Assembly: GCA_964016885.1 (NCBI GenBank) | Contig: OZ024759.1 | Span: 13,454,001-13,518,000, forward strand | Length of the DNA: 64,000 nt | DNA from: Eledone cirrhosa | Taxonomy: Eukaryota | Reading direction: 5' to 3' | Shown here: positions 8,016-62,130 of the stretch, piece by piece | Layout of the letters: every line of letters starts with the position of its first letter | Numbering within the stretch: position 1 is the first letter of the stretch | Program-made: the position numbers and the translations under genes | Notes under the pieces: generated by a model | What the model was told of the DNA's origin: nothing | Database searches by the model: none | The model's input: the letters and a program-made list of their open reading frames with translations, nothing else

Positions 8016-8167
8016 TATATATATATATATATAAACAATGAGTTATTTAATTTGTTGATTATTCAATAAATTTAATTTATAACAGATTAGAAGCACTCAA
8101 CAGGATTCTTCTGGAGTATAATATCAATAATGTTAATAAATGGAAGCTATCTTTATAAAACCATATT

Positions 8168-8228
8168 TATTTTATTATATATATTTCAAGGGTACCAACA
8201 TTTTGGTACGCTCTCATCAGATAAAATA
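8168..8228 (-). ncRNA. Minimal type-I hammerhead ribozyme motif
   Basis: Minus strand: TATTTTAT-CTGATGA-GAGCGTACCAA-AATG-TTGGTACCCTT-GAAA-TATATA-TA-ATAAAATA. 8-bp stem I, 10/11-bp stem II, palindromic stem III. Confidence 0.8.
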
Positions 8229-8298
8229 CAAAAATTGGTTTATAGATAGTGACATATTCAGAAAAGAACTTAATGTTGTGAGTTCTATTTGAATAGTC

Positions 8299-8356
8299 TA
8301 TTTTATCTGATGAGAGCATACCAAAATTTTGGCACCCTTGAAATATATATAAAATA
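8299..8356 (+). ncRNA. Degenerate hammerhead, inverted partner of 8168-8228
   Basis: CTGATGA at 8307-8313 and GAAA at 8340-8343. Two stem-II substitutions and a shortened TATA segment disturb the cleavage site. Confidence 0.6.
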
Positions 8357-8417
8357 ATGGTTTTATAAAGATATATTCTATTTATTAATATTATTGATAT
8401 ATATTTATATATATATA

Positions 8418-8828: not shown

Positions 8829-9128
8829 TCATCATCATTTCATTTTACGTCCGCTTTTTCTCTGCTTTTACGGGTGGGACGGGAACTGATTCTGGCTTGA
8901 TTTCTACAGCTGGATGCCCTTCCTAACACCAACCTCATTTACAGTGAGTGCTGGGTGCTATTTTGCTGTGGCACCTCCACGACCTCATTTCTACAGCTGA
9001 GTAAACTGGAGCAATGTGAAATAAAGTGTCTTACTCAAGGAAACAACACATCACCCGGTCTGAGAATTGAACTCACAACCTTTCGATTGCAAGCCCAATG
9101 CTCTAACCACTAAGCCATGTGCCTCCAT
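8829..9128 (-). mobile_element. tRNA-derived SINE (CORE-like segment, AGGAAGGGCATCCAGCTGTA segment, RTE-type tail)
   Basis: Minus strand has an A box (TGGCTTAGTGG), a B box (GAGTTCAATTC), CCTTGAGTAAGACACTT and a (GAT)n tail. Homologues at 18914-19292, 41360-41690 and 48675-48980. Confidence 0.85.
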
Positions 9129-13649: not shown

Positions 13650-13975
13650 TCTTAAATTTAAAATTTTAATCTTCTAAATTTAAAATTTTAATCTTCTAAA
13701 TTAAAATTTTAATCTTCTAAATTAAAATTTTAATCTTCTAAATTTAAAATTTTAATCTTCTAAATTTAAAATTTTAATCTTCTAAATTTAAAATTTTAAT
13801 CTTCTAAATTTAAAATTTTAATCTTCTAAATTTAAAATTTTAATCTTCTAAATTAAAATTTTAATCTTCTAAATTAAAATTTTAATCTTCTAAATTTAAA
13901 ATTTTAATCTTCTAAATTTAAAATTTTAATCTTCTAAATTTAAAATTTTAATCTTCTAAATTAAAATTTTTCAAC
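13650..13975. repeat. 21/22-bp AT-rich minisatellite (AAAATTTTAATCTTCTAAATT[T])
   Basis: About 14 tandem copies just upstream of the 14031 acceptor. Confidence 0.9.
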
Positions 13976-14030
13976 TTTTAATTTTTATATTCTTTTTAAT
14001 TTAAATTTTTTGTTCTTGGTTATATTTCAG

Positions 14031-15251
14031 AGAGAAGAAAGTGATGTGTCATCAGTGGAGAGTGGTAGTGGCACACCGTCGGAAGGTGCCCAGTTTTCCT
14101 ATGTTGACCTGACCACAATTGATGAATCAGTAGAGTTAGCCAGTGCTGGAAGTAAAACCTTGCCTTCGATCAGTCGACAATGGTCAACACCAAACCATAC
14201 CCCTCTGTTTTCAATGGATAAACCCTCGACTGTTGTCAATATAGAACAATGGCAGTCTTTTGACTCACCTGAGAAGAAACCTCCTGAAATAATTCACAGT
14301 TCTCCTCATCTTTGTCCTTTGATACCCCCTCGAACATCTTCTGGTGTTGCAGTTGCTGCAACAAAGTCCAGTTTTCAGGAGAACGACCACGATGTGAGCA
14401 AAGTAACTGTTAAAGGTCGTTCACCAATTCCCCCTGCAATTCCTCCTCGGCCATCTGCCAAGGCTATTGCAGCTTTTCAGGACAACTTTGCTCCTGATTT
14501 ACCCCCTCGGGGTAAGAGGGCTGGCTCAGATTTTATGAAGTTTGAGGAAAATATTTCATTTGATCCATTTCAAGATAATTCACCACCCACTTCTTTGGCT
14601 GGCCCAGAGAGTGCTCCAACAACAACAACAGCAGCATCTACAACAAAAACAATAGCTTTAAAAGGACCTCCTGAAAAAACGAATCTAAGACGAAAGTCTA
14701 TTTCTCGAACGCCAGCATTCCGTCGTATCAAACAAAACTCTGCCAATGCTTCCTCGGAGCCTAGCGAGGCTGCAGATGATGAAGCCGAGAATGTGAAATC
14801 TAGTGACCCCACTTTAATGTTTGACCCCCTTGTTGCCAATGACGATAGTCTGGTGGTTAACTCCATTGTACAAGACCAATGTAAAACAGAAAAGTCCGAA
14901 GATGAAGAATTATTACGTGACTGGGACTTTCATAAGAAGACATCTTACAACTGTATTTCGGCTGTTCCATCTGTGGTGACCTCACGATCCTCTGTTTCAG
15001 CTGTCCCCGCTACTCCGTTCTTCCCGCCCTCTCTTCATTCTTCCTCCTCTACTCCTGCTTCAACGTCTCCCCAACTCCGGTGTAAGTCAGCAAATGCCAG
15101 AGATTATAGTCAGCTCAATCGACAACGTACAATTGAAGTTGACACGTCCCAAAGAGCACCAACTGACCTCTTCGCTGACCTTGTTAACCTTCATCGGAGC
15201 AAAAGCCGAACTCCTTCTCCACAGCCAAGATCGTGGAAAGCTTTTCAGTAG
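14031..15251 (+). CDS. DENND1: Terminal exon of probable DENND1/connecdenn (Rab35 GEF family); disordered Ser/Pro-rich tail
   Basis: TTTCAG acceptor in phase 0 and 406 open codons. AP-2-binding motifs FxDxF (FQDNF), DPF and a C-terminal WxxF (WKAF); PxxPxR motifs; AATAAA at 15379 and 15392. Confidence 0.8.
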   Translation, partial: REESDVSSVESGSGTPSEGAQFSYVDLTTIDESVELASAGSKTLPSISRQWSTPNHTPLFSMDKPSTVVNIEQWQSFDSPEKKPPEIIHSSPHLCPLIPPRTSSGVAVAATKSSFQENDHDVSKVTVKGRSPIPPAIPPRPSAKAIAAFQDNFAPDLPPRGKRAGSDFMKFEENISFDPFQDNSPPTSLAGPESAPTTTTAASTTKTIALKGPPEKTNLRRKSISRTPAFRRIKQNSANASSEPSEAADDEAENVKSSDPTLMFDPLVANDDSLVVNSIVQDQCKTEKSEDEELLRDWDFHKKTSYNCISAVPSVVTSRSSVSAVPATPFFPPSLHSSSSTPASTSPQLRCKSANARDYSQLNRQRTIEVDTSQRAPTDLFADLVNLHRSKSRTPSPQPRSWKAFQ

Positions 15252-23200: not shown

Positions 23201-25568
23201 AAGTGCAGTGAATGAGTTTGATACAATAAATTGTTATAAATAACACTGTTTGACTTCCTTAAAGGAGGAGGGCTGAGAGGACAAATTTCAGGGAGCCAGT
23301 ATACAAGTTTTTACACTGGTGAAATAACATTTCTTCAAATTGATTCTGCCCCTTAAAAAGGTGAGTCTACAAATCCTGGAAAAACGTTGATCATGTCGAC
23401 TTAGCATGAGCTTGTTCCTCCGATACACTGCTCTGAACACCAAGAAGAGCCTTGATGCAGTCTGTTTCCCATCACAACTAGAGCCAGCTGGTTTTGGCAC
23501 AGTTGGTTTCCTGTCACAACTGGAGCTGGCCTCGACCGTGTTGATGGTTAGTGACCTGACTAAATAACCCTGTTCCCTTTTGAGAGAGGTAATCCCTAAC
23601 CTGGGACATGTAGTGCTCATGTCTAACTTGTGGGATCTTGACCAGCAACCTCCCTCGTGATGCTGCCACAAATAAGCACCCACTACACTTCATAAGGGCA
23701 CCTTGCCATAAAAGTGTTGAGAGAACCCCTCTAGTTGTGTCAGTGGAAGGCATCCAGCTGTAGAAAGCTTGCCATATGTTAGTGGGATATAGATCCGACA
23801 TTTAATCAATGGTATTCTAGCCATGACCAACGTATGTATCTAAAACTACGTCGTTGAATGTGTCCTTCATTGTATTAAAATGTGGCTGCTGTTTTTAGCA
23901 GGTTGGGTGACAATTCTAACAAGTAGGATATTCTCTTCAAAAATATTTGACTAGTTTTCGTTGCTTGTGTAAAATTCCAGCCCTAATCTAGCTTGACCCA
24001 TCGGAAACATTGCTCCAGTCGTGGTAAAATCAGTGCCCTTTAATCCTTCCTGCCCAGAATGTCATAACCCCAAAAGTAGACTTTTAAAACATTTCCAACC
24101 GTGACCATCCTGTGTTTATATGACTATTTAAATCCTTATCGTCACAAGTGTCCTCCTTTGCTTTAGAAGTGCGAGAGACAAATATTTAGCTGGCGTATAG
24201 CTCCAGTACACTCGGGAGTTAATCCTGCAATAGACCAGCGTCCTATCCAGGGAGAGTCTTGTACTCGGAGACACTTAACAACAAGGAAACCCGGTAATAG
24301 AACAGACTTTAGCTTAACTTGATATATATACTAAATTTAGGTTTAATCAATACTTATAAACCGACGCTTTACCCTTTTTATTTCCAGAAACATGAATATA
24401 TACTTATATACAGAACAATTAATATGTATGTACAAAATACTAGTAGTTTCTAATACGTTAATAATTGTCTTATGAAAAAAATATTTGTTCCCTTTGCACA
24501 TACTATTTTTTTTTTTTATCAAAGTATTTCCAAAGTAGCCATAAGTACCATTAATTTACTCAGTAGAATTACGGCCTTCGCGGTGGCATGCGAACTGAGT
24601 CTCGGACTTCCAGTATAGGTGGCTGGCGTTTCTTTTCGAAATGTTATTAATATGTAAATGAACCTTTGAAGTTTCTATATATATAAGGAGAGTTGGATGA
24701 TCGTCAACGAGGAAGAGAAGGGGTTCGAGTCAGATCCAGGGAACAAGGCCCTTAGCCATTTCCTCTTCCTATCCTCGGGCCCTGTTAACTGGATCTGACT
24801 CGAACCCCTTCTCTTCCTCCCTGTGATCTCGTTGATGATCATCCAGCTCTCCTTTCACCTAGACCTGTCAACCGCTCTCTCCACCTTTCTGATCTTCTCA
24901 ATCAGAGCTGACGATGCTTCCTCTTCTTCTCTCTCCTCGGTACCAGGGCACGCGGCCTCGGCAGCCAGGACTATTTGCAGGCTGGTTATATGCTGGCCTG
25001 CCTCCTAGATAGCGCGAGCAATCGTTTTTTATTAGAGTTATTTCCGCTTTATGGAACTCTTGTGTTGCTTTTTTTCGATTGACATCCGGTTCTTTGAAAA
25101 AGATCATTTTGGATATTACGTTCATTTAAAGAGGTATGTAATGTTTTCTTTGTATACAATATAACTCTCTACACACCATATCAATATGTACATTTTATTC
25201 GTAGAAACTAAACCTCTTTATACATATATTTGCATAGGGAAATGGCAATCATTTGCAAAGATTAAGCAATCACTATATATGTTTACACATTCATATATGG
25301 AAGTGTGCATGCATGTATATATATATATATATGTGTGTGTTTCAATATAGATAAGTATATATGAATATACTGGCAGAGTCACACTTTACTATCCCAAGTA
25401 TCAAGTACTCATAATGTCAGCAATAATTAACCAATAGTTTTGTTTAGCTGCTGCCCCACCTCCACGTTGTGTTGTATTTCCAATGTAATGTCACCTCACA
25501 CACATTTCTCGGTCATATCAAGTAGAATTTAGCGTATTTCTATATTAAGTTGGCAAATAAGATAACAT

Positions 25569-25636
25569 CTCTGTCTGACGACCGATCCAGACGTTTACTA
25601 TTATTGTCTATGATCCAGAAACCTTTGGTAATGGAG
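25569..25636 (+). ncRNA. Type-I hammerhead motif in the left palindrome arm
   Basis: CTCTGT-CTGACGA-[..GATC.AGAC..GTCT..GATC..]-GAAA-CCTTTGG-TA-ATGGAG; base of stem II imperfect. Confidence 0.55.
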
Positions 25637-25723
25637 TAGTTATATTTTGTGTTGTTCACTTTCTAATATATATATGTATATATATTTGAGAAAACACATC
25701 GCTATATATATACACACAAAGAC

Positions 25724-25756
<33 letters not shown>

Positions 25757-25817
25757 AAGACATATATATATATATACACACACACACAGACATATATATA
25801 TATGTACACACACACAG

Positions 25818-25849
<32 letters not shown>

Positions 25850-25899
25850 ATATATATATATGTATATATATATACAAACACACAGACAGGCGTATATAT

Positions 25900-25930
<31 letters not shown>

Positions 25931-27663
25931 CAGTTGGTAAATAATATACTTCTTCTTCTCTTCATCATATCCTCGTGTTGGAGGACTTTCTCTTTGTCAA
26001 CATGTCCCAGTCAGTCGTTGGAGTGTCATACTAGATGTGCAGTCATGCTTTACAATCATGAGTTCGATTCTCGTAGCAAGCTTCTGAAGGACTTGTGCTT
26101 GATTCTGATAGTTACTTTACCATGGCAGAATCTCCTTTGGCCCTGCTAGATTCTGGTTATTAATATTAACCAGAATCTTTTGAGAACTGTCGTCTTTTTG
26201 TCAGAGTGAATATTTCACCCGTCTACGTAACATAGAACCATTTACATTCTTAGTTTCTTTCTTTTTTGACACACACACACACTTAATATGCATTTTTAGT
26301 TTAATATTCTTTTTATTGATAATGTATGTAAATGACTCTCATTTCTTTTTACAGATGTCCAGCCATCAAGATCATATGCTGTGTTGTTTGCCGTAACAAG
26401 CAGGAATGTCGTAGTTTCTTTTAATAAATATACGAGAAAACTAATTGCTATACACACACACACACACACACACACACATCTTTTAATAAAGAAAGTTTAC
26501 ACATTATATACGAATTGTATTCAGTTTATTTTGACAAAAATGAATAAAGAAAGTTTAGATCTTATATACGAGTTGTGTTCAGTTTATTTTGACAAAAATG
26601 AATAAAGAAATCAAGAGTCTAGAAGAAACCGAGTAAGACGTGATATAAAGAACGTAAGTGTTTATGAAGTTTCTAAATAAAGAAACTAAGAGTTAGATAA
26701 AGTTTCTTTTAAGAAACTGAGAATGAAGAAGTTTCTAAATAAAGAAACTAAGAGGTAGATAAAGTTTCTTGAAAGAAACTGAGATTTATGAAGTTTCTAA
26801 ATAAAGAAACTAAGAATGTTTTTGAAATTATCGAAAAAAAAAATCTATGAAATAAGACCTCGTTTTAATTTTTTTTATTAAAGGGAGGTAACTCTGTAAT
26901 ATTTTGAAACGAATTACCTCCCTTTGAAACACCTTCGTCACCGTCGTTACCACCGTCGGCACCTTCGTAACCGTCGTCACCATTACCGCCGCCACCTGGT
27001 GGCGGAGGTAAAGATACCGACGAAGACGAAGGTGCACCGTCGTCTTCGTCGGTATCTTTACCACCGCCACCAGGTGGCGGAGGTGAAGACACCGACGAAG
27101 ACGACGGTGCACCTTCGTCTTCGTCGGTATCTTTACCTCCGCCACCAGGTGGCGGCGGTAATGGTGACGACGGTTACGAAGGTGCCGACGGTGGTAACGA
27201 CGGTGACGAAGGTGTTTCAAAGGGAGGTAATTCGTTTCAAAATATTACAGAGTTACCTCCCTTTAATAAAAAAAATTAAAACGAGGTCTTATTTCATAGA
27301 TTTTTTTTTCGATAATTTCAAAAACATTCTTAGTTTCTTTATTTAGAAACTTCATAAATCTCAGTTTCTTTCAAGAAACTTTATCTACCTCTTCGTTTCT
27401 TTATTTAGAAACTTCTTCATTCTCAGTTTCTTACAAGAAACTTTATCTAACTCTTAGTTTCTTTATTTAGAAACTTCCTAAACACTTACGTTCTTTATAT
27501 CACGTCTTACTCGGTTTCTTCTAGACTCTTGATTTCTTTATTCATTTTTGTCAAAATAAACTGAACACAACTCGTATATAAGATCTAAACTTTCTTTATT
27601 CATTTTTGTCAAAATAAACTGAATACAATTCGTATATAATGTGTAAACTTTCTTTATTAAAAG

Positions 27664-27768
<105 letters not shown>

Positions 27769-28286
27769 GCAATTAGTTTTCTCGTATATTTATTAAAAGA
27801 AACTACGACATTCCTGCTTGTTACGGCAAACAACACAGCATATGATCTTGATGGCTGGACATCTGTAAAAAGAAATGAGAGTCATTTACATACATTATCA
27901 ATAAAAAGAATATTAAACTAAAAATGCATATTAAGTGTGTGTGTGTGTCAAAAAAGAAAGAAACTAAGAATGTAAATGGTTCTATGTTACGTAGACGGGT
28001 GAAATATTCACTCTGACAAAAAGACGACAGTTCTCAAAAGATTCTGGTTAATATTAATAACCAGAATCTAGCAGGGCCAAAGGAGATTCTGCCATGGTAA
28101 AGTAACTATCAGAATCAAGCACAAGTCCTTCAGAAGCTTGCTACGAGAATCGAACTCATGATTGTAAAGCATGACTGCACATCTAGTATGACACTCCAAC
28201 GACTGACTGGGACATGTTGACAAAGAGAAAGTCCTCCAACACGAGGATATGATGAAGAGAAGAAGAAGTATATTATTTACCAACTG

Positions 28287-28319
<33 letters not shown>

Positions 28320-28370
28320 ATATATACGCCTGTCTGTGTGTTTGTATATATATATACATATATATATATG

Positions 28371-28424
<54 letters not shown>

Positions 28425-28452
28425 TGTGTGTGTGTGTACATATATATATATG

Positions 28453-28483
<31 letters not shown>

Positions 28484-28580
28484 GTCTTTGTGTGTGTGTG
28501 TGTGTATATATATAGCGATGTGTTTTCTCAAATATATATACATATATATATTAGAAAGTGAACAACACAAAATATAACTA

Positions 28581-28648
28581 CTCCATTACCAAAGGTTTCT
28601 GGATCATAGACAATAATAGTAAACGTCTGGATCGGTCGTCAGACAGAG
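28581..28648 (-). ncRNA. Mirror hammerhead motif in the right palindrome arm
   Basis: Reverse complement of 25569-25636. Confidence 0.55.
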
Positions 28649-29060
28649 ATGTTATCTTATTTGCCAACTTAAATAATATAGAAATACGCTAAATTCTATT
28701 TGATATGACCGAGAAATATATGTAAAGTGGCATTACATTGGAAATACAACACAACGTGGAGGTGGGGCAGCAGCTAAACACAACGTAGAGGTGGGGCAGC
28801 AGCTAAACAAAACTATTGGTTAATTATTGCTGACATTATGGAGGGAAATAAACGGAAAATGTTCAAGTGAAACTCTTCAATATAAAATAAAGATTTACTA
28901 GCGTTGTCTCACGTTTCTCCAGATCAGCCTGTAGAAATGAGTTGGACAACATCAGTGGCGTGCGGAGGGAAGACTGCTGGTCTTCCACAAACAACGTTGC
29001 CCGGTCTCGGAGGGGAACTTTTTAGATGAAAATCCCATGGTCAATCGTGAGGGTCTTTAC

Positions 29061-29116
<56 letters not shown>

Positions 29117-29795
29117 AAGATTGAAGAATAACATGGTCGGCTGTACAAAAAGGTTTTATTTCTAGTATTATCAGAAGTTTCATTGATCAGGTGAGTCTAA
29201 AGGCCGCTAATCACTCGACCTTAAATACAGTGTTTACCTCTGATCAGAGGTAAACACTATACAATGTCGAGAAAGATTCTATGTGAAACGAATGTTTTCT
29301 GAAAAATCTACATGAAATTAGTGTTTTCTGAAAAGTGTGTATCTAAGAGAATGTATGTGTATAGAAAACTATATCCGTTATTGACATAAATGTATATATT
29401 AGTACTAGTAGCAAAGAAAACATTACATACCTCTTTGCATGAAAGTAATATCCAAAATGGTTCTCTTCCAAAGAACCGGAAGTCACTTCAAAAAAAGAAG
29501 AGTTTAAAAATTGGGAGATAATTCTAATAAAATTTTGAGCAAAAATCGATCGTTCGCGAGGTCCGGGACGCAGGCCAGACAAGTAGCCAGCCTGCAAATA
29601 GTCCCAGCTGCATAAGCCACGAAGACCTCGTTTAATTTAGAATCTACAAGTATTTTGTACATATATATACAGAACAAATTATTATGGAGATAAATATATG
29701 TACACATATGTGTGGGTGTGTGTATATATATACATAAGTTTATGAATAATTATATATGTGTATATATACATATACAGACATATGTATATGTTTCA

Positions 29796-30195
29796 AGGAA
29801 GATGATAAGCTACAGGAGAGGTTCACAGTAGAAGTGAGGAACAGGTTCAGTGCTCAGAGGAGAGAGACATCGGAGGGACTAAGGAGAGTGTGATGGGGAG
29901 GTACCGGTACTTCACCAATGCAAGTGAGACCCTGGTGCCGAGGAAAGAGAAGAGGAGGAAGCATCGTCAGCTCTGATAGAGAAGATCAGAAGTGTGGAGA
30001 GAGCGGTTGACAGGTCTAGGTGTAAGGAGAGCTGGATGATCATCAACGAGATCACAGGGAGGAAGAGAGGGGGTTCGAGTCAGATCCAGGGAACAGGGCC
30101 CGAGAATAGGAAGAGGAAATAGCTGAGGGCCCTGTTCCCTGGATCTGACTCGAACCCCTTCTCTTCCTCGTTGATGATTATCCAGCTCTCCTTAT
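29796..30195 (+). mobile_element. RTE-like LINE internal fragment with fold-back end (mirrored, shorter, at 24686-24950)
   Basis: LQERFTVEVRNRFS...KIRSVERAVDRSRCKESWMIINEITGRK, with ~65-bp inverted duplication at its end. Confidence 0.6.
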
Positions 30196-32612
30196 ATATA
30201 TAGAAACTTCAAAGGTTCATTTACATATTAATAACATTTCGAAAATAAACGCCAGCCACCTATACTGGAAGTCCGAGACGCAGTTCGCATGCCACCGCGA
30301 AGGCCACAATTTTACTGAGTAAATTAATGGTACTTATGGCTACTTTGGAAATATTTTGATAAAAAAAAAAATATATAGTATATGCAAAGGGAACAAATAT
30401 TTTTTTCATAAGATAATTATTAACGCATTGGTGGTGTTGTGAAGATGGGGTTTTCAATGTCTGCCAACGGAGTGTTTAGGGGGTTTAATTGTGGAGGTTT
30501 ATCGAAGTTCGATGGTGACCGTGTTCTACAATTGAGGATCCTTTGATGACTGCAAGACCTTATGATGGAGACGCAAATTAGACATGTCTCTAAATCTTTG
30601 TTTACAGTCAAGCGATAGCCATAGAAGATTATATAGGTTAGACATGTCTTTTAACCGCTCTTTTGGCCACAAAATCTTACAGGACATTGAGCCTTCGAGA
30701 TGGAAAGAGACTGAGGTGTGAAAGACACTTCCACTGAAATATCTACTGCCTGTACAGTCACCAAAGGAAGTATAGACTGACATTGACAACCATAAGTGCA
30801 CCCCGTAACAACACACACATATCACCAGCAATGCATTAACAATTTACAAATGAAAAATATATTAATACCTGAATTACAATCGATACAAATGTGACTAATA
30901 CGTACCTTGATGGATTCCAGGTTTAAGGACACATGACCCCAGTTCTTGGGATGTTAAAATACAGGTCAACCTTTTATAAGCTGCCTTAGATGTAGACGGT
31001 AAGGAGGGACTGTATATCAGGGACACATCCTTACATGTAATTGTGGGCCGTATGGAGGTACAGCTACCATAATAGACTATAAAAGGGACGTTAGATGCAA
31101 CTGTAGGCCGCGTGGAAGGACAGAATACTGTATATCAGTGACGTTAAAAGACAGACCCATCCTTAGATGTAACTGTGGACTGTAAGGAGGGACAGCTACC
31201 ACAATATGCTGGAAGACAAACACAACCTTACAGCTGCCGTGTGGGGGGACAGCTACCACAGTATACTGTATAACAGGGACGTTACAAGACAGACCCAAAC
31301 TTATATTACGTTTAACTGTGGTTCTTATGGAGGGAGAACTACCACAATATACTGTAAATAACGGACGTTTAAAGGACAAACACAACCTTAGATGTAACAG
31401 TATATCGCGTTAAAAGGCAGGCCCAGCTCTCTAGACTGTAAGTAAACTTAAAGAAGATGGAGGTATTCCTCCAGCCTACACCCCATATCACCATTGGCGA
31501 GACTGAACGGAGCATCTTCACATCACATGCCAAGATTGAGAGGGAAATCCGCAACAGACTGGCAAAGGTGACCAGTGGATTTGATAGACTGTACTAACGT
31601 GTGAAAGATTAAACATGAACCTGGACAGTAAGAAGTTGTGTAGGAGAAAGGTTCGTAGGTATGGCTATTTCCAGTCGAGGTGGGCTGCAGGGAATCCTCG
31701 GCTTAATCAGTATGGAGGATGCTCACAATCATTGGAATGACAGGACGAGAGAAGAAGGCTGCAGTTCGCAGGATGGGGGAGGCTTTGGAGAAGGAGAGAG
31801 GGGATTGAGGGTAAATATTCCCAATGAACGAAGGACAGGGACATCAACACCAAGGCTATGTCCATCGAAGGTGAATGAACCTGAGGACATAATTATGCCT
31901 ATATATCATCATCAACTTTTAACGTCTATCTTCCACGCTAGAATGGATTAGACGAGTCTGTCCCATTTAGAGGCAAGTTCGGTGGGATGACTGCTCATAT
32001 ATATATAAGCAGGATCGAAGTTAATTGCAGCATATATATAAACTTTATTGGCATATTGCAATCGTATCAATTTCGATCATCTCAGGGTACAATCATAATT
32101 ACGGACTTACGTAACATATGTGTGTGGGAGTGGCGATTGAATAACTGCAATCGTTAAAACACCCGAGAAAACCTCTCCAGAATACAAAATTAATTTACAA
32201 CAGTTTCAGAAAATGTTTAGCACTGTTGAAGAATTGAATCAACAATTTAAGGTCTTTGATCTCAATCTTGAAAGAAGCATTTAAATACACTGAAATATTA
32301 ACAACAACTAGGAAGAGTTTTAAAGAAATACACTAGACATATTTTCTGTGAATAAAAAAGAAACATGTTGAATTTTATTGTTTATTTTCAACATGAATTG
32401 GAACAGAATGTATTCAATAAAGAAAGATTTACAGAATGAGGTTTATAGAGAGCAATTTGAGTTAAATTTCTTAGAAAGTATGTATATGGCTTAGTTTAGT
32501 TTCTTAGAAGAGGTAACACTATTTGTATGTGTGTTTTTTTTTAGTTTAAAAGAAAGAATGTCAGGTGGGTGAAGATGTGGCAGAAAGCCACAATACCACT
32601 TCACATGAACAC

Positions 32613-33740
32613 AATAATAATAATGAAATTATTGTGTAAAGTGCTCAGGTGCACTACAACTCATCAAAGGTGCATGTATAGTACATAGAATAATATACAA
32701 ATGTCAGGGAAGTGTATGAGTCATGATATACATGTGTGCGTGTGTATGGAGGGGGAATATTAAGTGTAGTGTTGGCGAATCTCAAGAAGCATGGAGGTTT
32801 TAAAGGATGCAGTGTCTCGACAGCTAACAACTGATGCAGGGAGTTTGTTCCATGCTTCAGCAACTCTGAGCGTGAAGAAATGTTTCCGAAAGTCATGGGA
32901 GCTGTGCTGTTTTCTGACTTTGTAGGCATGCCCACGTGTGTTAGACACATGGAAATCAAAAAGGTACTCAGGGTTGTTGTTGGCAAGATGGTTAATAATT
33001 TTGTGGGTGTTTACCAAGTCAGTTGCCAGGCGTCGGAGCTTCAATGTATCCATGCCAAGGGAAGTAAGGCGTTCAGAGTATGGTAGATGCCTGATGGAGG
33101 GTATTCGCTTGGTTGCACGTCTCTGAGCAGTTAGGCGGTCAATGTTCTGAGCAAGATAGGGGTTTCAGACTGGTGATGCAAATTCTAAGTGTGGCCGCAC
33201 CATAGCTATATAGAACTTTAAATAGATAGCTGGAGAGCGGCTGACAAAGGTCTTGCTGAGTCATGCTAAGACACCCTCGGCCTTCTACACAATTTTAGAG
33301 ATGTGTTTCGTCCAACGCAAATCGCTGCTAACCGTAATGCCCAGGTCACGTTCACAAGAAGACTTCTTGATATTAGTGTTGTGGAGGGAGTATGTGGACG
33401 CTGGGTTTTTACTCCCAAAATGCATGGTCGTGCACTTGTCAACAGCCAGTCTGAGATCCATTGTTGCATTGTGTCCAGGTCAGACTACAAGCAAGATCTA
33501 TAGTGTTCAGTATCTGTCTTTTTTATCTCAAGGTACAGATTGATGTCCTCTGCATATTTCAGTACTGTGGCATTCTTTAAGTTGGCATCTATGTCATTAA
33601 TATATGCCACAAACAAAAGGGGGCCAAGAACAGATACCTGTGGAACACCAGATGACATCTCATATGGTGAGGAATGCTGTCCTAGAACCGTGACTACCTC
33701 TCTTCGACTGAGAATGAAGGACTTCAACCAGTTTAAAAAA
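32613..33740 (-). mobile_element. CR1-group LINE 3' fragment
   Basis: SGVPQVSVLGPLLFVAYINDI...YAED and RRLATDL...TRGHAYKV...HFFTLRVAEAWNKLP; (ATT)n tail. Confidence 0.9.
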
Positions 33741-35839
33741 TGTGAGTTATTGACATAAAGTGTGTATCTAATAAAATGTATGTGTATTGAGAGAATGTTT
33801 AGTTTCTTAGATGTCCTAGTATACAGCAAAGAAAACATTACATACCTCTTTACACGGGGAAAACAATATCCAAAATGATTTTCTTTCAAAGAATCGAAAA
33901 AAAAAAAAAAAATACAAGAGTTCCATAAAGGAGAAATAACTCTAACAAAAGGGAGATAACTCTAATCAAATTTAAAGCAAAAAACATTGCTCGCTCGGTT
34001 CAGGACATCATATAGCCAGCCTGCAAATAGACCTGGCTGCCACTCAGCCGCCTGCCAACGCAACGATTCGATCTTCAGACACAGAGAATGGACGAGTTCT
34101 CTCCAGCATACATAGGGAGGCGACGATAGTCCGAACCACCAGACGCATGGCCACGCGAAGCCACACATTACTCAGTAAATTAGTCATACTTATAAATAAA
34201 ATTTTATATATTAAAAACATAATAATACAGAAACGGAAAGAAAGCGAGATAACACGCATCAAAATATATTCCGTGAGTTACCTCACTCACATTCCGTTTC
34301 TATATATATATTTCTTTTTATTTATTAATTTATTATTTGAGTGACCCGAATTTTCCTGGTCGTTTTTTTCGGCTGTGCGAATGATCTAGGCATCGTCTCT
34401 GTGTGTTGGTATTTTAACGATAGTTATAACTCTGGTTCATCCAAACTATTGAGCCCTCCGCCACACATGTCGAAGATTGTTTATCATTATTTCGTGGGCC
34501 GAGATTCTGATTCTCGATTATTTACTTGTATATATATATTATGTTAGAAATTACTAGTATTTAGTACATATATACCGATCAATTAATATGTAAGTAAATA
34601 TACGTAAATAAAAAAATAAATTATTATATATATAAAGTTTGTTCTAAGTTTTTCGCCCCGCTTCCTTGTTAAGTGTCTCAGAATACAAGACTCTCCCTGG
34701 ATAGGATGCAGTCTATCGCAGGATTAACTCCCTAACTATTGAGTGTACTGGAGCAACATAAAATGTTGCCCTAAAACTGCTTCTTTCGCCCTCTAATATA
34801 TTGACTATGGTTTATTTGTCCCTAGGAATGTCTATAAGTTAACCACACCCTAAAGCCGTTTCTTTCGCCCCCTAACCTGGCATTCAAATACTAATTTGAA
34901 GCAACATCAAGTTTTCGAGGTTTGCGGAGATAGCAATAAATAGTTCATTTGCGTGTTCTTGCTATATGAAGGCGAGACACAGCCAACACTACCCTTGTCC
35001 CGTCTGTACAGTCAACAAAGGATCAACAAGTGATGAACAAGTTTGTCATTATCAAATTTCAATGGACACCTGTAAGTGCACTGCCTAACAACACACACAC
35101 ACACATGCATATATATATATATGAGCAAAGTACGGTGTGGACGACCTGTCTGATCAATGCAAGCATGGAAAATACGTCGTCTAACATTTATTAGTAAGTG
35201 GAAGACAACGAATTTGTTAACAAATGTGAATAATACATAAACGGTTAATTAAACTGATATTTTGTATTAGTGTTCTATATGTTAGTGAAGGATAGGTACA
35301 CTGGTTCTCAACAACACCCAGAGGGTGACATTCTAAACTTAGAGAGGAGATGGGTACTGTCAAACATTTCTCAGGTTCACTGAACTGTCATGATGGAGAC
35401 ACAACAAAACATAGAATAGTACACCAGCTCCGGGGAACTGATTAATGTATATTTATGGTAATTAAGGTGCAACAATACAGCATTCCTTTCTACAGTAATG
35501 AGAAATTCCAAGTGTAAATCCTGTGTATATCTATATAAACAACATTGGTAAACTTAATAAGTATTGTATACATATTATATCATTGTTATTTAACGTCCAT
35601 TCACCATGATGGCAAGGGTTGGACGACTCATTGCAGACAAAGTTAGTACTTTTGGTTTTAAAAAATTATAAACAAAGTGACGGTAAATAATTTGGAGTAA
35701 ACATCTTTTTACTGTGTTTTAGTTAAATTTTAAAATAACAAACAACTACTCTGGTAAGGGCACTCTGCTGTAGAAACCAGCTACTGCTGATGCCATTCCA
35801 AACATCAATCAGTGTCAACCAATTCTAGAGGCTTCCCGC

Positions 35840-44720: not shown

Positions 44721-45128
44721 TGTGTATTCATTTTATTAAGGCTAAATGGTGAGTGTTGTTACCCCGGAGTTTCGCCTGTTTATCACAGGGTCATCTGATG
44801 ATTATATGATAAACAGGCGAAACTCCGGGGTAACAAGACTCTACTTAGTCTTAATATAAACTCTACTTCGGTATTGAGTACTTTCTTTCAGCCGTCAACA
44901 ACATGCGGATATATGTGTCTGCGTGCGTGTGAGTGATGGTATGTTTGTTTTTTAATCTTGAACTCCGCCCCCTGTGTGTCTGTGTATAATCACACGACAG
45001 GCACAGATTCTACACCCAATCAACATATATACACTCACTATATTTGCGCAGTCACGCGATAAATACATACTACATCCACAAACACTATATAGACACTGTG
45101 TTTAAGATACCGATTCTTCAACCAGTAA

Positions 45129-45394: not shown

Positions 45395-46217
45395 ATTAAC
45401 TTCTACGGGACTAGAACTGTTTCATTTGTATGGAATCATCGCGCGCGCGTGTGTGTAAGCGAGATGCGGACCCTCGGCCCATCTCCGCTTGACACCTTGT
45501 CCAACCCATGCTAGCAGGGAAAACAGACGTTAAATGATGACAATGATGATAGTGGCACTCACACACTGTAAATAGAGTCATACAGTAGAAAAGGAAGAAC
45601 GGCAGACAGACAAATAGATAGATAGAAAGTATGTATTAATTAAATAAAGAGAATCTATGTGGATTGTCGTGGTTGGCCTCACAGACTAACCAGAGTTGGC
45701 CTCACAGACTAAACAATAACAACAACTATAATAATAGTAATGACATCAACAACAACCTCGCCACCACCACCACCATTAACAATACTAACACCATCAACAA
45801 CACTAACACCACCAACCCCACTATCAACAACATTAAAAATCGCCACCACCACTATCACCAATTGCCTCGCCACTACCATCAGCACCACTAACACCACTAC
45901 TAACAACAACACCAACATCATCACCACCAACACCACTACTAACAACAACACAAACATCACCACCATCAACACCACTACTAACATCACCACCAACACCACC
46001 ACCATCAACAACACTAGCATCACCACCATCAACAACAACACTAAGACCACCATTAACAACAACAACACCAACTCCACTATCAACAACATTAACAACACCA
46101 CCAACAACAATATTATCCAGAGATAGATAGATGAAGAGAACGAGAGAGAGGGGGGAGGGAGTGTAATAATAATATTAAAATGAAGGACCTCCATTATTGT
46201 CCTCCTTCTTTTCCTAC

Positions 46218-46646
46218 CTGAAGATATCGAACGATATGTTTCAATATGACTTCGGCAATTAATCGATTCTCGGTTTTATCGCAGACTAAACTGAAAGCCA
46301 GGGTTCCAGCTCCGTACCATACGATGACCTTCTCGTCAGCATACGGAGCACGTTCTGACAGACTGAGCAACCCACATTCCAGCTCTGGTAAACCAAGGCC
46401 ATTATCAATATTGGTAGCTCTGGCCAGGTCTTCATCTAATGTCCGCCCCGATACACTTCTCCGAAATTGGTATTCTCCATGTACCACATCTGCCACGTAC
46501 TGCCACTGAGCTTGTCTAACACAGTGCCATAAATTCCCCGATTCCTTGATTTCGTACGAAGTCAGAGGATCCTGTCGGAAAGTCGACGAATGTAAAACAA
46601 GACTGGAACCTGGTAGAAGAGTGTGAATAATGAAGGCATAAACCAT
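46218..46646 (-). CDS. AP5S1: AP-5 complex subunit sigma-1, coding exon 1
   Basis: MVYAFIIHTL start and VIVWYGAGTLAFSLVCDKTENRLIAE match AP5S1 (MVHAFLIHTL; VVWLGVLSLGFALVLDAHENLLLAE). CAG|GTAGGA donor; spliced product 198 aa. Confidence 0.92.
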
Positions 46647-47727
46647 AGCTGTCTGCTCGAAGGCTCTTGTTTAAATCGAACAACCGGTGTACATTTAAAC
46701 GTTTCCCCTCTTGGCCATTAACCTGTGAACTGCCGTCTGCTCGAGTTTCTTGTATTATAAAATACCGGTGAATACTGAAATATATCCCTCTTGATATATT
46801 TTTTTTTACCATCGGATATTCTGATATTTCCAAATTTCATAGGCGATACACCGTTCCCACCAGCGCCGTATATTATTACTGGCATCGGATATCATCATCA
46901 TCATCATCATATATATATATATATAAGTGTGTGTGTGTGTGTGTATATATATATATCATCATCATCACCGTTTTACGTCCGTTCTTCCACGCTAGCATGG
47001 GTTAGACGGGTTGTCCTGTTGTGGGCAGTGTCTGGTCGGCTGACCATGCCTTGCTCATACGGGAACTGATGTGGCTTGATTTCTACAGCTGGATGCCCTT
47101 CCTAACACCAACCTCATTTACAGTGAGTGCTGGGTGCTTTTTCGTGGCGCCTACACGTCCACTTTACAGTGTGGGCTGGGTGCTTTTTTGCCATGGCACC
47201 TCCACGACCACCTTGCGGTGGGTGGTGTGGGGGCATATTGTCTATATGCTTCAGCTTGTACCCATGGGAGGTCGGGTACTCTGTATTACTGCGTGACGCC
47301 AGAGGTCACAGTCGTGTGTCATTGCCTTTGAGAAGTGTAATTGGGTAAGGTCGGCTTTTATCACCTCATCCCAGGTCATCTTGGGTCTCCCCACTCCGCG
47401 GTTTCCATCGACTCATATATATATATATATATTTAATTAGAAAGTGAACAACACAATATATAACTACTCCATTACCAAAGGTTTCAGGACCCTAGACAAT
47501 ATTAACATATGTCTAAGGTCTTGAAACCTTTTGTAATGGAGTAGTTATATTTTGTGTTGTTCACTTTCTAATTAAATAGCTCTGTTTTATACATAGAGCA
47601 CTCTTTTTTCCTTTGCCGTTTCTTCGGAAATACTGAACATATATATATATCTTCTGAGTTTCAGAAGATCCCGTTAAGGGTGAAAGCAGTGATTTTTTGC
47701 TTAAACTTTAATCTGTTATTTTAATAA

Positions 47728-47759
<32 letters not shown>

Positions 47760-47819
47760 GTGAGGTTTTTTTTACAAAATGAAAAATAACCGAGGTGTCC
47801 TACACGAGTGAAAGTATAA

Positions 47820-48095
47820 AGAAAAAGGGATGAAATCGAAAATGCAACTGGAGTCTTATTTTTTTTTAAAATATATATATTTATTTGGTTCCTTTACCGG
47901 TTTCGCAGTTCTTCTGCTTTTCAAAAGGTGAGTTGAGATGGAGGGTCTGTGGTTGAGAAAAACCACAGACCCTCCATCTCAACTCACCTTTTGAAAAGCA
48001 GAAGAACTGCGAAACCGGTAAAGGAACCAAATAAATATATATATTTAAAAAAAAAATAAGACTCCAGTTGCATTTTCGATTTCATCTCTTTTTCT
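47820..48095. mobile_element. Palindromic Penelope-like pLTR remnant with two degenerate hammerheads
   Basis: ~135-bp arms around a 6-nt loop. CCTT-TTGAAAA-GCAG-AAGAA-CTGC-GAAA-CCGG-TA-AAGG at 47987-48024, mirrored at 47891-47928. Confidence 0.65.
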
Positions 48096-48674
48096 ATATA
48101 CATATATATATATACAAATATAAATTCAGCGAGAATCGCATTTTGGCGGGTAGAAATAGCGAAACAAAACACAAAAATCAGAAATAATGCTGGCAAGCAC
48201 TCCATAGTTAAAAAAACAGAGCTAAACGATATGTTAAAACGCCATACAAAACGGAAAAAGTGGTCAAGAAAGCGTCAACCACCTAAGCCAAAAAGCAAAT
48301 CAAGCTAAACAGGTAAAAATAAAATATATATATAAAATAAATGGATATGATTCCAGTTCCTCAGAGAAATAACAACCCAACCAGGAACTGGGAATATTGG
48401 AGTATTGACGGAGTTAAACACTTCAACAACATGTGTACCTGTCTCTACCACACCAATTTGGACTGCCTGAAGAGGTCACAGCCAAAGTTGGCTGTCACCG
48501 AAATATATATAGCAGTAATATACGAAGCCAAATTTTAAATATTTGACTTATTTATTTTATTTTACATTACTCCGGAGTAACCAAACCAACTTGAGCACTT
48601 CGTCGAGTGCTCCAATCTGCATACCGAGGTGTCGGTATACAACCAACATATACTAAAAATTTATATATAAACAA

Positions 48675-49427: not shown

Positions 49428-49695
49428 GCATATATTTTGATTATGGGAATATCTTCATTTGTTAATATTTTGAATAATATTAAAAACTCCAGGAAAACTT
49501 TGCTGCTGAGTGATTTTAATCTATTGTAAAACTGTATTCATTGAGTAATCAATGAACCATATTAATCTTTGGTCATATATATATATATATATATATATAG
49601 TTTAATAAATGAACAAAGAACAAAAATCAGAGAGGCAGTACAAATCATATTATTAGTTTCACGCTTAGAGAATCATCGGAATATATTATACACAT

Positions 49696-49733
<38 letters not shown>

Positions 49734-49903
49734 ATATATATATATAGATAGATAAATATACACGGGTGTGTATGATTGTGTATAGAAGATTATATTAATA
49801 AGAGGAATTCCAACTTTATCTGATTTACTCGTTTTATTTACAATCCTTTATAATGGTATTATAATGAAATAGTATGATAGAATATTAAATTCTAAGTGTT
49901 AAA

Positions 49904-49942
49904 TGAACAAGTACTTTCATGCTTTCGCAATCTTCAGGTTCA
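49904..49942 (-). ncRNA. 39-nt minimal hammerhead motif (inverted partner)
   Basis: Exact reverse complement of 50005-50043. Confidence 0.7.
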
Positions 49943-50004
49943 TAATATGTGGTGACAGTCAAGTTTGCAATTTTCAACTGTGACTTGATTGTCACCACAT
50001 ATTA

Positions 50005-50043
50005 TGAACCTGAAGATTGCGAAAGCATGAAAGTACTTGTTCA
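50005..50043 (+). ncRNA. 39-nt minimal hammerhead motif
   Basis: TGAAC-CTGAAGA-T-TGC-GAAA-GCA-T-GAAA-GTAC-TT-GTTCA. Confidence 0.7.
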
Positions 50044-50099
50044 ATTTTAAAGGATTGTAAATAAAACGAGTAAATCAGACAAAGTTGGAATTCCTCTTA

Positions 50100-50154
<55 letters not shown>

Positions 50155-50399
50155 TTATATGTATATTTATATGTGTGTATAATATACTCTGATGATTCTG
50201 GGTTGTGCTTGGATGAAATGATTGCAAGTGATTAAATGTTCTAAACACTCTTTGATTGTTATCTATAAAGTATTTCAGCTCTGTAATATACTTGTTATTT
50301 TACATTGAGTTATTCTCATACTTGTAACTGGATAATATTTAATATTACCCACATTTTATATATATGTGTATACATATATATATATACATATATATATAC

Positions 50400-51250: not shown

Positions 51251-51327
<77 letters not shown>

Positions 51328-51329
<2 letters not shown>

Positions 51330-52188
51330 GCCGCTAAAGGGTTCTCCCTAAAAATGAAAGGCAGGTTGTACGATGCCTGCATACGAACAGCAATGTTACA
51401 TGGCAGTGAGACATGGGCATTGTGTGCAGAGGATAAACACAGACAGACTGGAGAGAAACGAAGCTTGCATGCTCCGCTGGATGTGTAATAGTAATATACG
51501 TGAACGGCAAAGCATAAACGAACTAAGGGAGAAATTAGAAATAAGAGGGATCAGATGTTGTTTACTCGAGAGAAGACTACGTTGGTACGTCACGTGATGC
51601 GCATGAAAGACGACAGCTGTATAAAAAAGTGCAGGGCAATAAAGATAGACGGTAGCCACGGAGTAGGCAGACCTAGAAAAACCTGGGACGAGCTGATAAA
51701 TTCTGACCTCACACACTTACACCTCTCCAAGACAATGTCACTGGACCGAGAGCTTTGGCGCTACACAGTAATAGAGAAGACCCGCCTTACCTAAGTACAA
51801 AGTGAAACCTACTACAGTCAGTAGGCACCTCTAACAAAATACACCGCCCTCCCACTACCCCCACCCCATCCACACCACCCCTTTCAATGTAAAGTTATGT
51901 TGGTGCCACAACATCCAGGCCGAAACAAATGAGATCGTGTAGGTGTCACGACAAAAAAACACACAGTCCACGCTGTAATGTGGCTGTGTAGGTAACACGG
52001 TAAAAACCTCCCAGTCCCACACTGTAAACGTGGTTGGTGTTAGGAAGGGCATCCAGCTGTAGTAAACCCGCCAGACAGTCCTATGCGAGCAAGACAACCA
52101 CTCTTGCTTCAAGTGGGAAAACTCCCATCCAAACCCATGCAAGCGTGGAACACGGACGTTAAACGATGATGATGGTGATGATGATGAT
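51328..52188 (+). mobile_element. RTE LINE 3' fragment with long SINE-like 3' UTR
   Basis: Closely similar (reverse complement) to 59926-60770. Confidence 0.9.
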
Positions 52189-59925: not shown

Positions 59926-62130
59926 TATCATCATCATCATCGTTTAACGTCCATCATCCATGCTTGCATTGGTTTGGACGGGAATTTTCCCACTTGAGGC
60001 AAGATTGGTTGTCTTGCTCGTATAGGACTGTCTGGCGGGTTTTCTACGGCTGGATGCCCTTCCTAACACCAACCACGTTTACAGTGTGGACTGGGAGGTT
60101 TTTACCGTGTTACCTACATGGCCACATTACAGCGTGGACTGTGTTTTTTTTTGTCGTGATACCTACACGACCTCATTTATTTAGGACTGGATGTTGTGGT
60201 ACCAACATAACTTTAGATCGAAAGGGGTGGTGTGGATGTGGTGGGGGTATTGGGACGGGGGTGTATTTTGGTAAGAGGTGCCTACTGACTGTAGGTTTTG
60301 CTTTGCACTTAGGCAAGGCGGGTCTTCTGTATTACTGTGTAGCGTCAAAGATCTCGGTCCAGTGACATTATCTTGGAGAGGTGTAAGTGTGTGAGGTCGG
60401 AATTTATCAAGTCATCCTAGGTTTTTCTGGGTCTGTCTACTCCGTGGCTACCGTCTATTTTGATCGCCCTGCACCTTTTTATACAGCTGTCGTCTTTCAT
60501 GCACATCACGTGACCATACCAACGTAGTCTTCTCTCGAGTAAACAACATCTGATCCCTCTTATTCCTAATTTCTCACTTACTTCATTTATGCTTTGCCAT
60601 TCACGTATATTACTATTACACATCCAGCAGAGCATGCAAGCTTCGTTCCTCTCCAGTCTGCGTATATCCTCTGCACACAATGCCCAGGTCTCACTGCCAT
60701 GCAACATTGCTGTTCGTATGCAGGCATCATACAGCCTGCCTTTCATTTTTAGAGAGAAACCTTTAGCGGCCAACAGTGGTATAAGCTCTCTGAACTTTTT
60801 CCATCCCGTTCTGACTATAGCTACTGTACTTTCAGAGCACCCTCCACCACTGCTGATTTTGTCACCCAGGTAACGGAAGGTGTCCACTATTTCTATAGAA
60901 CCATCTGTGCAATGGTATTCTGTGGGCACTTGCTGCTACTTATTACACCTGAGCACCGGCCACATATAAAATCTATATTCTTAGTTATCTTACCTGTGAT
61001 CCCACTACATCTTTTATACACCCATACTTTGCATTTGGGACATAAAATGGAGTTTCTGCCTACTCCTTTCCTACACACTGAGCATGGCCATTTCCCAGAT
61101 GGGACCAGTGCCCTATTTTCCTTCCTACATACTAGAACTTTAGTCTTAGACAGGTTAATTTTAAGGCCTTTTGATTCTAGGCCATGCTTCCATGTTTGGA
61201 ATTTCTTCTCTAGTTCAGCCATTGATTCAGCTATAAGCGTTAGATCATCAGCGTATAGGAGTTCCCATGGGCAGCCGGTCTTGGACTCCTCTGTTATAGC
61301 CTGGAGGGCAATAATAAATAGGAGGGGTCTAAGGACAGAGCCCTGATGAACACCAACTTTTACGCTAAACTCTTCCCTATATTCGTTGTTAATTCTAACC
61401 TTGCTGACTGTTTCTTTATACATGGCTTGTAGAACTCTCACAAGCCATTCATTAACACCTAGTTTTCTGAGAGCCCACCAGATAATGGGGCGTAGGACTC
61501 TCCTCTAGTTGTCGTACAATGAAAAGAGTATCTGTTGTACTTTTACCTGACACAAACCCGAACTGCATTTCATCCAGATCAATTCGCTCTCTGATTAGTT
61601 GCGCTATTACTTTTTCTGTGACCTTCATGACCTGGTCAATTAATTTAATGCCTCTATAGTTTCCCCTATCTAGGGCATCTCCTTTACCCTTGTAGCAGTT
61701 AATGATGATGCTGCTACGCCAGTCCTTCGGTACGACTCCATTCTGTATGACTTGGTTTACTATCCGGGTGACCATAGTGTGTCCTACCATTCCAGATGCT
61801 TTCAGCATTTCAGCAACTATTTCTGAAGGCCCAGCTGCCTTGCCCGTCTTCATATCTTTGATTGCCTTACTTATTATACTACCTTCAACTTGCACTGCTG
61901 GTCCCTCTATTGGATCGATGTGGGGAGACTGTCTTTCTCCCATTTATTCTCCTCATTTAGTAGCCTTTTGTAGTGACACTTCCAGGCTCCCTTCTTATCA
62001 GCGTCAGTGATGGCAAGTACACCATCATCATTAAGGACACACTTCTCCCCAACAATATCACGGTTTTCCTTGACACATTGCCTAGCAATCCTGAACACCT
62101 CACGTTTTTGGTCCTCGCGTTGTAGAACAT
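59926..62130 (-). mobile_element. RTE LINE, ~2.2 kb, frameshifted, with a Cys-rich finger inside the RT region
   Basis: GKAAGP...NYRGIKL...QFGF, GVHQGSVL, LLYADD, CSVC...CPKC...RC...CGRC, FRYLGD, RLRWYGHV. Confidence 0.92.

Follow-up and report, generated by a model that had tools for sequence, protein, structure and literature searches.

A short CpG-rich island in the octopus Eledone cirrhosa turned out to be the axis (position 27072) of a 3.4-kb palindrome at 25410-28840, which the preliminary description of this DNA had overlooked. The window, by which we mean the whole stretch analyzed, comprises 64,000 nucleotides of contig OZ024759.1. With a probability of roughly 45%, we read the palindrome as a non-autonomous foldback-type DNA transposon, possibly served by a piggyBac transposase, that was built by iterated fold-back and whose mirror was later extended by 760 bp into the flank. 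Membership of any named transposon family is not claimed, and the element stands as a candidate foldback type judged from its sequence. If this reading is true, we are dealing with an undescribed octopus foldback-type repeat that records successive fold-backs within 225 bp, with a near-spacerless 3.4-kb palindrome persisting in an animal germ line, and with a natural case for hairpin-driven rearrangement and arm-to-arm correction that would involve no new mechanism. No description of this octopus repeat was found in the literature, the repeat libraries Repbase and Dfam being outside the search.

The core is organized as had been proposed, with four alternating 37-bp units, U1 (26998-27034), U2' (27035-27071), U3 (27073-27109), and U4' (27110-27146), and a single A between U2' and U3; it can alternatively be described as two copies of a self-complementary 75-bp monomer. 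U1 is the exact reverse complement of U4', and the remaining unit pairs differ at 2 or 3 of 37 bases. Each of the five symmetry axes was located at the position claimed for it, two at GGTGCACC (27031-27038 and 27106-27113) and three at CCACC-W-GGTGG (26992-27002, 27067-27077, and 27142-27152). The earlier account had missed a diverged fifth unit V at 26960-26996 (minus strand) and a sixth at 27148-27184 (plus strand), which flank the core, are identical mirror images of each other, and match U1 at 29 of 37 positions (8/37 different); the six homologous units alternate in the order V' U U' U U' V across 225 bp. Divergence among the units is graded (0, 2 to 3, and 8 to 11 of 37), which suggests that several fold-back events took place. 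Outside the array, a G-[A/G]-[C/T] triplet pattern continues at 27185-27221 (plus strand; mirror at 26923-26959), and within 27148-27216 the triplets carry G at the first position in 20 of 23 cases and C or T at the third position in 21 of 23. The enrichment in GC and CpG was also borne out: the island has 58.2% GC, compared with 30 to 31% in the arms, and holds 38 CpG in 299 bp, the highest CpG count among 299-bp windows scanned every 25 bp; it is not the GC maximum of that scan, as 42726 reaches 59.5%.

Next to the island, the small hairpin at 26880-26925 (plus strand; mirror at 27219-27264; fold, -10.7 kcal/mol) and the three 26-bp subrepeats at 26666, 26728, and 26790 were found where they had been placed, the latter being mirrored at 27328, 27390 (1 mismatch), and 27452. 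These three exact 26-mers belong to a 31/62-bp subrepeat array at 26645-26815 (plus strand; mirror at 27328-27498), for which tandem-number variants occur among public contigs, and a 58-bp tandem pair lies at 26485-26610 (plus strand; mirror at 27533-27658). Long inverted arms with such modular tandem subrepeats (58-bp and 31/62-bp arrays in both arms) are a feature of foldback elements. When microsatellites are set aside, mismatches between the arms number 3 among the 74 positions of the units, 3 among the 1,160 positions between the units and 25548, and 6 among the 138 positions farthest out. This makes 6 of 1,234 inner versus 6 of 138 outer positions (Fisher p, 5e-4) and leaves the inner arms about 99.5% alike. 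The core mismatches lie at 9, 13, and 18 bases from the axis only, with no others within 159 bases. We infer that this combination of an imperfect tip and near-perfect arms fits either fold-back priming or an arm-to-arm correction that did not reach the tip. One microsatellite differs by 74 bp between the arms (a CA/TG tract of 27 versus 101 bp), and the outer end of the right arm (28670-28840) departs from the left arm by a 29-bp tandem duplication, a 4-bp gap, and 6 substitutions. The 25410 and 28840 junctions show no target-site duplication. Five arm substitutions are clustered at 25491-25503 versus 28718-28730, four of them being the same G/A change on one strand; they could reflect deamination of single-stranded DNA or retro-copied A-to-I editing.

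In the preliminary description, disagreement of raw reads with the four-unit core was named as something that would refute it. Three contig runs, all from one sample, and one RAD run were compared with the window over 25935-27230. The axes are crossed in all three contig runs of that sample: contigs at 27024-27120 (two runs) and 27000-27120 (one run) span the three inner axes at depths of 13 to 25. They depart from the window at 9 or 10 letters, whereas the closest arm contigs depart at 0 to 4; this suggests a second copy that alternates in the same way. A 197-base contig at a depth of 93 leads from the subrepeats through the small hairpin to V', and among the contigs listed none spans the whole stretch. 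Since contigs cross the inner axes and the 197-base contig reaches V', the alternating core is present in the species and a long-read chimera is unlikely. Specifically, the idea that the palindrome is an assembly or library artefact, namely a fold-back chimeric long read, draws on the near-identity of the inner arms, on the letters at 26045, 26124, 26126, and 26141, where both arms disagree with the entire or almost the entire depth of the public sample, and on the A/C type shared by all three arm differences near the core. On the other hand, the letters that U2 and U3 alone have in the window predominate among the public contigs at 27063, 27081, and 27085, the inner axes are crossed as described above, and the arms differ by 74 bp in a microsatellite and by the 29-bp duplication; we find an artefact hardly credible. 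The public sample is probably another animal than the source of the window. The RAD run has zero depth over 26859-27230, to which we attach no evidential weight.

The same contigs reveal a repeat family with a sharp edge in the arm. Summed contig depth, which is not a copy number, rises from about 120 to 180 (26111-26154) to about 1,130 to 1,340 (26199-26242) in all three runs of the sample; overall it is about 75 to 210 over 25935-26154 and 1,130 to 1,400 over 26199-26286, reaches at most 2,070 in the 58-bp repeats, and lies mostly between 100 and 560 in the hairpin and core. In the three runs the step interpolates, from 44-base bins, to 26171-26174, adjoining a TTAA at 26166-26169 that is followed by CCAGAA. 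The segment bounded in this manner, 26170-28047, is a 1,878-bp mirror image with TTAA on both sides and constitutes the candidate non-autonomous foldback element, whose end would read CCAGAATC. The TTAA|CCAGAA junction (26166-26175) recurs at 28042-28051 (28047|TTAA), and the two sides count as one mirrored copy; as TTAA is self-complementary, copying of the mirror yields it on both sides and no insertion is needed to account for it. A TTAA within a 9-base window is expected by chance at about 5% given the TTAA rate of the window, and somewhat more often at the local rate, and its position at the depth step is only suggestive of an element edge. The first six bases, CCAGAA, fit the piggyBac end motif C[CAT][CAT][TGA][TAG][TGA], a very degenerate motif for which a match is weak. 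In the frames scanned, no piggyBac transposase was found, as would be expected of a non-autonomous copy.

The family is variable, with 287 to 316 contigs per run in the one sample, most of them 90 to 99% alike, and with deletion and tandem-number joints. In contigs with internal deletions, the outer arm is connected to the side of the small hairpin (26534 to 26868 and 26598 to 26874), which makes the core side part of the family and not just of this locus. The core is missing from some members, since certain relatives pass from the subrepeats into different sequence at 26819. Window-type arm depth divided by window-type centre depth is 2.1, 1.7, and 2.2, as expected of two arms per centre. A single-copy depth of about 36 to 40 would make this one locus of a family numbering in the tens, and a depth of about 5 would imply about ten or more near-identical arms, the arms being at 65 to 93. 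The latter value is suggested by recurrent contigs at depths of 3 to 11 and by the short average contig. Among the public runs listed, no RNA run with the sequence was found, and exact-pattern scans of metagenome contigs with the subrepeat and with the TTAA end returned nothing. An 11-bp-arm hairpin at 26148-26178 straddles the likely element end TTAA|CCAG, and an inverted copy of the subrepeat end lies at about 26245-26262.

These observations can be combined in the following sequence of events: (i) a G-[A/G]-[C/T] tract of Gly/Asp- and Pro-type triplets would have held short palindromes (GGTGCACC and CCACC-W-GGTGG); (ii) a broken or stalled strand may have folded back on such a palindrome and copied itself, more than once, giving rise first to the oldest pair, V/U (8/37 different), and then to U/U' (2 to 3/37); (iii) the resulting element would consist of two long inverted arms only and would be moved by a transposase from elsewhere, of piggyBac type if the TTAA|CC end is read rightly; and (iv) a later fold-back or an arm-to-arm repair would have overrun the element end and mirrored 760 bp of the flank, comprising a LINE-like piece, microsatellites, and a Penelope-type stub. 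The iterated fold-back replication put forward previously fits the six alternating units, their graded divergence, and the restriction of mismatches to 9, 13, and 18 bases from the axis, and the comparison made with foldback terminal inverted repeats (TIRs) fits the subrepeats and a mirror segment that is flanked by TTAA where a repeat family has its edge. Outside this TTAA, the mirror includes the LINE-like piece, compound microsatellites, and a 258-bp stub ending at (TA)n, and because it runs 760 bp past that point an extra event must be assumed for the foldback reading. The LINE-like piece in the outer arm, which we take to be such by eye, gave no Pfam hit.

The overrun can also be explained without a foldback transposon: a dispersed repeat with a hairpin-prone GC tract may have suffered a break, folded at 27072, been copied over 1.7 kb, and been rejoined elsewhere in a single inverted duplication. 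A one-off event of this kind would account for a mirror that disregards the family edge and includes unrelated flank, for outer ends lacking a target-site duplication, and for a clustering of substitutions and a 29-bp duplication close to the outer end on the right, and it has a precedent in yeast, where foldback-templated inverted duplications at breaks are known (PMC11724301). However, the diverged contig has the same U-U'-U-U' order, from which the alternation seems to be older, and the TTAA at the depth step is left unexplained; we regard a single duplication as unlikely, while taking it seriously.

The candidate foldback element can be set beside several known systems. Galileo of Drosophila willistoni includes copies that consist of TIRs only and hold tandem repeats as well as other elements in their two arms (PMC4168063). 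The octopus structure resembles it in its long non-coding mirror arms with tandem repeats and pieces of other elements, a further likeness being arms that extend by template switching. Galileo differs in having target duplications of 7 to 8 bp at its true outer ends and a known P-family transposase (PMC4168063), whereas the octopus mirror overruns the likely TTAA end, has no partner that we could find, and is centred on six alternating units. The likeness to piggyBac elements lies in a TTAA that adjoins an end fitting the terminal motif and in subterminal repeats (PMC5381638). The TIRs given there average about 14 bp, whereas the octopus inverted repeat is the entire 0.9-kb half, no transposase was found in the frames scanned, and any TTAA duplication is putative. 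Tribolium satellites (PMC13081366) likewise consist of subunits in changing orientation, with the capacity to form hairpins or cruciforms, and show macro-dyad symmetries, but they make up multi-kilobase (peri)centromeric arrays, compared with a 225-bp array in a dispersed repeat. Helentrons and HINEs (DINE-1-like) possess 12- to 15-bp subTIRs near both ends, a 3' stem-loop, and a TT target (PMC4067079). The small hairpin by the GC triplet tract recalls this layout, and no matching asymmetric end pair was seen by eye. A Helentron link of the motifs, suggested by mollusc repeats, found no support in a literature search.

The preliminary description further held that a single strand of the island can fold either as one long hairpin or as a T with two ears. 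With DNA parameters both folds are possible, but they are far from equivalent, the two-ear form reaching -183.6 kcal/mol versus -206.4 kcal/mol for the long hairpin, and a three-ear form is far weaker still (-134.8 kcal/mol). The T is disfavoured by 23 kcal/mol because the two ears are near-identical (2 to 3/37 differences) and pair with each other. The folding z score is -50.8 against 100 shuffles, and the half-sequence alone folds as a single 37-bp hairpin and not as a T. A T-shaped terminus or origin of parvoviral type, as previously suggested, was not supported. Parvoviral inverted terminal repeats (ITRs), including that of AAV2, resemble the island in being GC-rich multipalindromes for which a stem with two ears can be drawn (PMC1131931 and PMC11357303); AAV2, however, has two different palindromes as ears and a GNGC repeat in the stem (PMC1131931), whereas the octopus ears are the same sequence, so that the long hairpin wins, and neither a GNGC run nor a rep or cap gene accompanies them. 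A run of at least two GNGC tetramers, which is the AAV-type site, other parvoviruses using others, is absent from both strands of 26870-27274. As regards the flip and flop isomers that characterize such ITRs, a centre in inverted state maps perfectly to the opposite strand.

The wider possibility is that the palindrome represents the fused hairpin termini or the origin of a linear element, parvovirus-like, of a large DNA virus, or Polinton-like, present as an integrated dimer junction. In its favour, a GC-rich multipalindrome with iterated CACC motifs lies next to AT-rich subrepeats, and a crustacean densovirus has T-shaped ends (PMC11357303). Among 23 long frames, on the other hand, no Pfam hit to Rep/NS1, capsid, or transposase domains was obtained, the only hits being AP-5 sigma, a PHD finger, and LINE-type pieces of reverse transcriptase (RT) or zf-RVT. 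A scan of shorter stop-free stretches of at least 45 amino acids, covering 142 of 188 and including all 95 that start in 24000-35200, revealed no viral or transposase domain (short decayed remnants could escape such a scan), and the sole above-threshold result was one RT piece already among the long-frame hits. A check against viral databases had been proposed; exact-pattern scans of viral contigs with the unit pattern and with the small-hairpin pattern matched nothing, and blastn against a phage collection gave no match. Adding to the near-identical ears, the weaker T, and the missing GNGC run, the arms contain host microsatellites and retroelement pieces, and we consider a linear-element end highly improbable. 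A likely role of the core is that of a hot spot for hairpin or cruciform formation rather than that of a dedicated replication origin.

As for the origin of the units, one of their strands reads as Gly/Asp-rich and the opposite strand as Pro/Ser-rich. A stop-free frame of 102 codons, rich in Pro, Gly, Asp, and Ser, runs through the core at 26971-27279 (plus strand) and has a near-identical counterpart at 26865-27173 (minus strand). The units may be the remnant of a Gly/Asp-rich coding repeat or exon in which complementary Gly and Pro codons seeded the fold-backs, an origin compatible with the foldback reading. This would agree with the strong triplet pattern, with frames open on both strands, with splice-like sites that frame 27149-27225, and with the finding that third codon positions account for 5 of 6 variable unit positions, 4 of the 6 being known from the U units of the window and 2 from contig variants (p, about 0.018, for a small filtered set among the rows listed). 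The third-position test rests, however, on five core rows with other letters among the rows listed, neither frame has an ATG, and protein searches with the core frame returned no credible homolog. Three compositional hits appeared in these searches and were rejected as homologs. Moreover, a degenerate trinucleotide satellite gives the same pattern and explains it equally well. Coding ancestry is possible, though somewhat doubtful.

The outermost part of the palindrome introduces a further kind of element. The left outer arm ends in a stub at 25410-25667 (plus strand) that carries a degenerate hammerhead-like motif at 25569-25636, faces the centre, ends at (TA)n, and is likely, if weakly so, a Penelope-type end; the mirror copy of the motif lies at 28581-28648 (minus strand). 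We read the stub as an older insertion that was caught in the mirror. Its last 70 to 90 bp or so are common to a fold-back at 47412-47578. In the arm motif the core letters, a 6-bp stem I, and a short helix III are present, and the stem II junction is broken. A relaxed hammerhead descriptor, loosened after inspection, gave 2 hits, equal to one independent copy, whereas 40 shuffles averaged 0.23 hits and never exceeded 2; with stricter descriptors there were none in the whole window, even at the sites clearest by eye, which makes these descriptors uninformative. Rfam reported no hammerhead: at gathering score there was one weak tRNA at 9060, and a search relaxed to E values of up to 10 added nothing but sub-threshold look-alikes of generic hairpins or microRNAs. 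RNA folding of the arm motif yielded a z score of 0.02. The bare hammerhead core pattern occurs 16 times versus 3.7 expected, and no open reading frame with Penelope RT plus GIY-YIG was found in the frames scanned.

The motifs at 25575 (plus) and 28642 (minus) face the centre and are not head to head. According to Arkhipova et al. (PMC3846280), head to head is the usual arrangement, self-priming on a sense template would yield tail-to-tail repeats, and unrelated DNA can be captured between solo pLTRs. Penelope-like inverted-pLTR insertions (PMC3846280, PMC4209133, and PMC8557442) are similar to the octopus structure in their junction palindromes, hammerhead-type motifs near the ends, insertion at (TA)n, and capture of host DNA; they differ in their usual head-to-head form with outward motifs, whereas the octopus motifs are inward and degenerate and lack a target duplication. 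Conceivably, a transcript from the stub read across 1.4 kb of flank and stopped within the self-pairing core; it would then have primed itself and been inserted tail to tail. Such read-through would be in keeping with an inward hammerhead-like motif in both outer arms whose end is common to another fold-back in the window, with the excess of the core pattern, and with the tail-to-tail priming and DNA capture stated by Arkhipova et al. Against this, the motif passes the relaxed descriptor only, with no hit from strict descriptors or Rfam, no target-site duplication was found at the palindrome ends, head to head is the usual form, and arm similarity is lowest in the outer part of the stub, all of which make read-through rather improbable.

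A bolder proposal, which we consider very unlikely, would have an animal mobile element exist as one continuous hairpin, its six-unit core serving as a self-priming origin with rolling-hairpin-like copying and isomer flipping, and spread in an octopus as near-identical palindromes with inward hammerhead ends; the lower single-copy depth given above would place about ten or more near-identical arms in a single genome. Only if such a self-priming palindromic replicon were true would there be a real surprise.

Elsewhere in the window, small fold-back palindromes are present at 8121-8400, 44731-44859, 47412-47578, 47814-48101, and 49669-50199, most of them with hammerhead core letters, and single hammerhead motifs at 48467 and 49371. 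The small palindromes are likely stubs of Penelope-like insertions, and in those at 8121-8400 and 49669-50199 the core letters point outward in both arms, which is the usual head-to-head Penelope form. More short or decayed palindromes lie to the right of the island at 29213-29272 and 34118-34393. A second repeat family has three mosaic copies around the palindrome, at 24150-25260 (minus strand), 29300-30430 (plus strand), and 33730-34800 (plus strand). Within the first two, 24452-24948 and 29930-30429 are 94% alike in inverted orientation, which makes them an older inverted pair enclosing the younger palindrome. Both inverted copies contain a fragment that appears LINE-like by eye (24685-24854 and 30023-30194); it is folded back into a hairpin with arms of about 85 bp, after which comes a TATATA tract. 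AAAGGGAGATAACTC, a motif almost equal to the arm of the small hairpin, is present in the copy at 33948 and has 11 near-matches in the window versus 0.44 expected. An 855-bp inverted pair, 51327-52179 versus 59927-60773, is 91% alike and about 8 kb apart. Host frames are represented by a Pro/Ser-rich one of 428 codons at 13965-15251 (plus strand), with no Pfam hit, and by a frame for AP-5 complex subunit sigma-1 at 46197-46670 (minus strand), which is 94% identical to an Octopus bimaculoides cluster and 85% to Argonauta and thereby places the host among the octopods.
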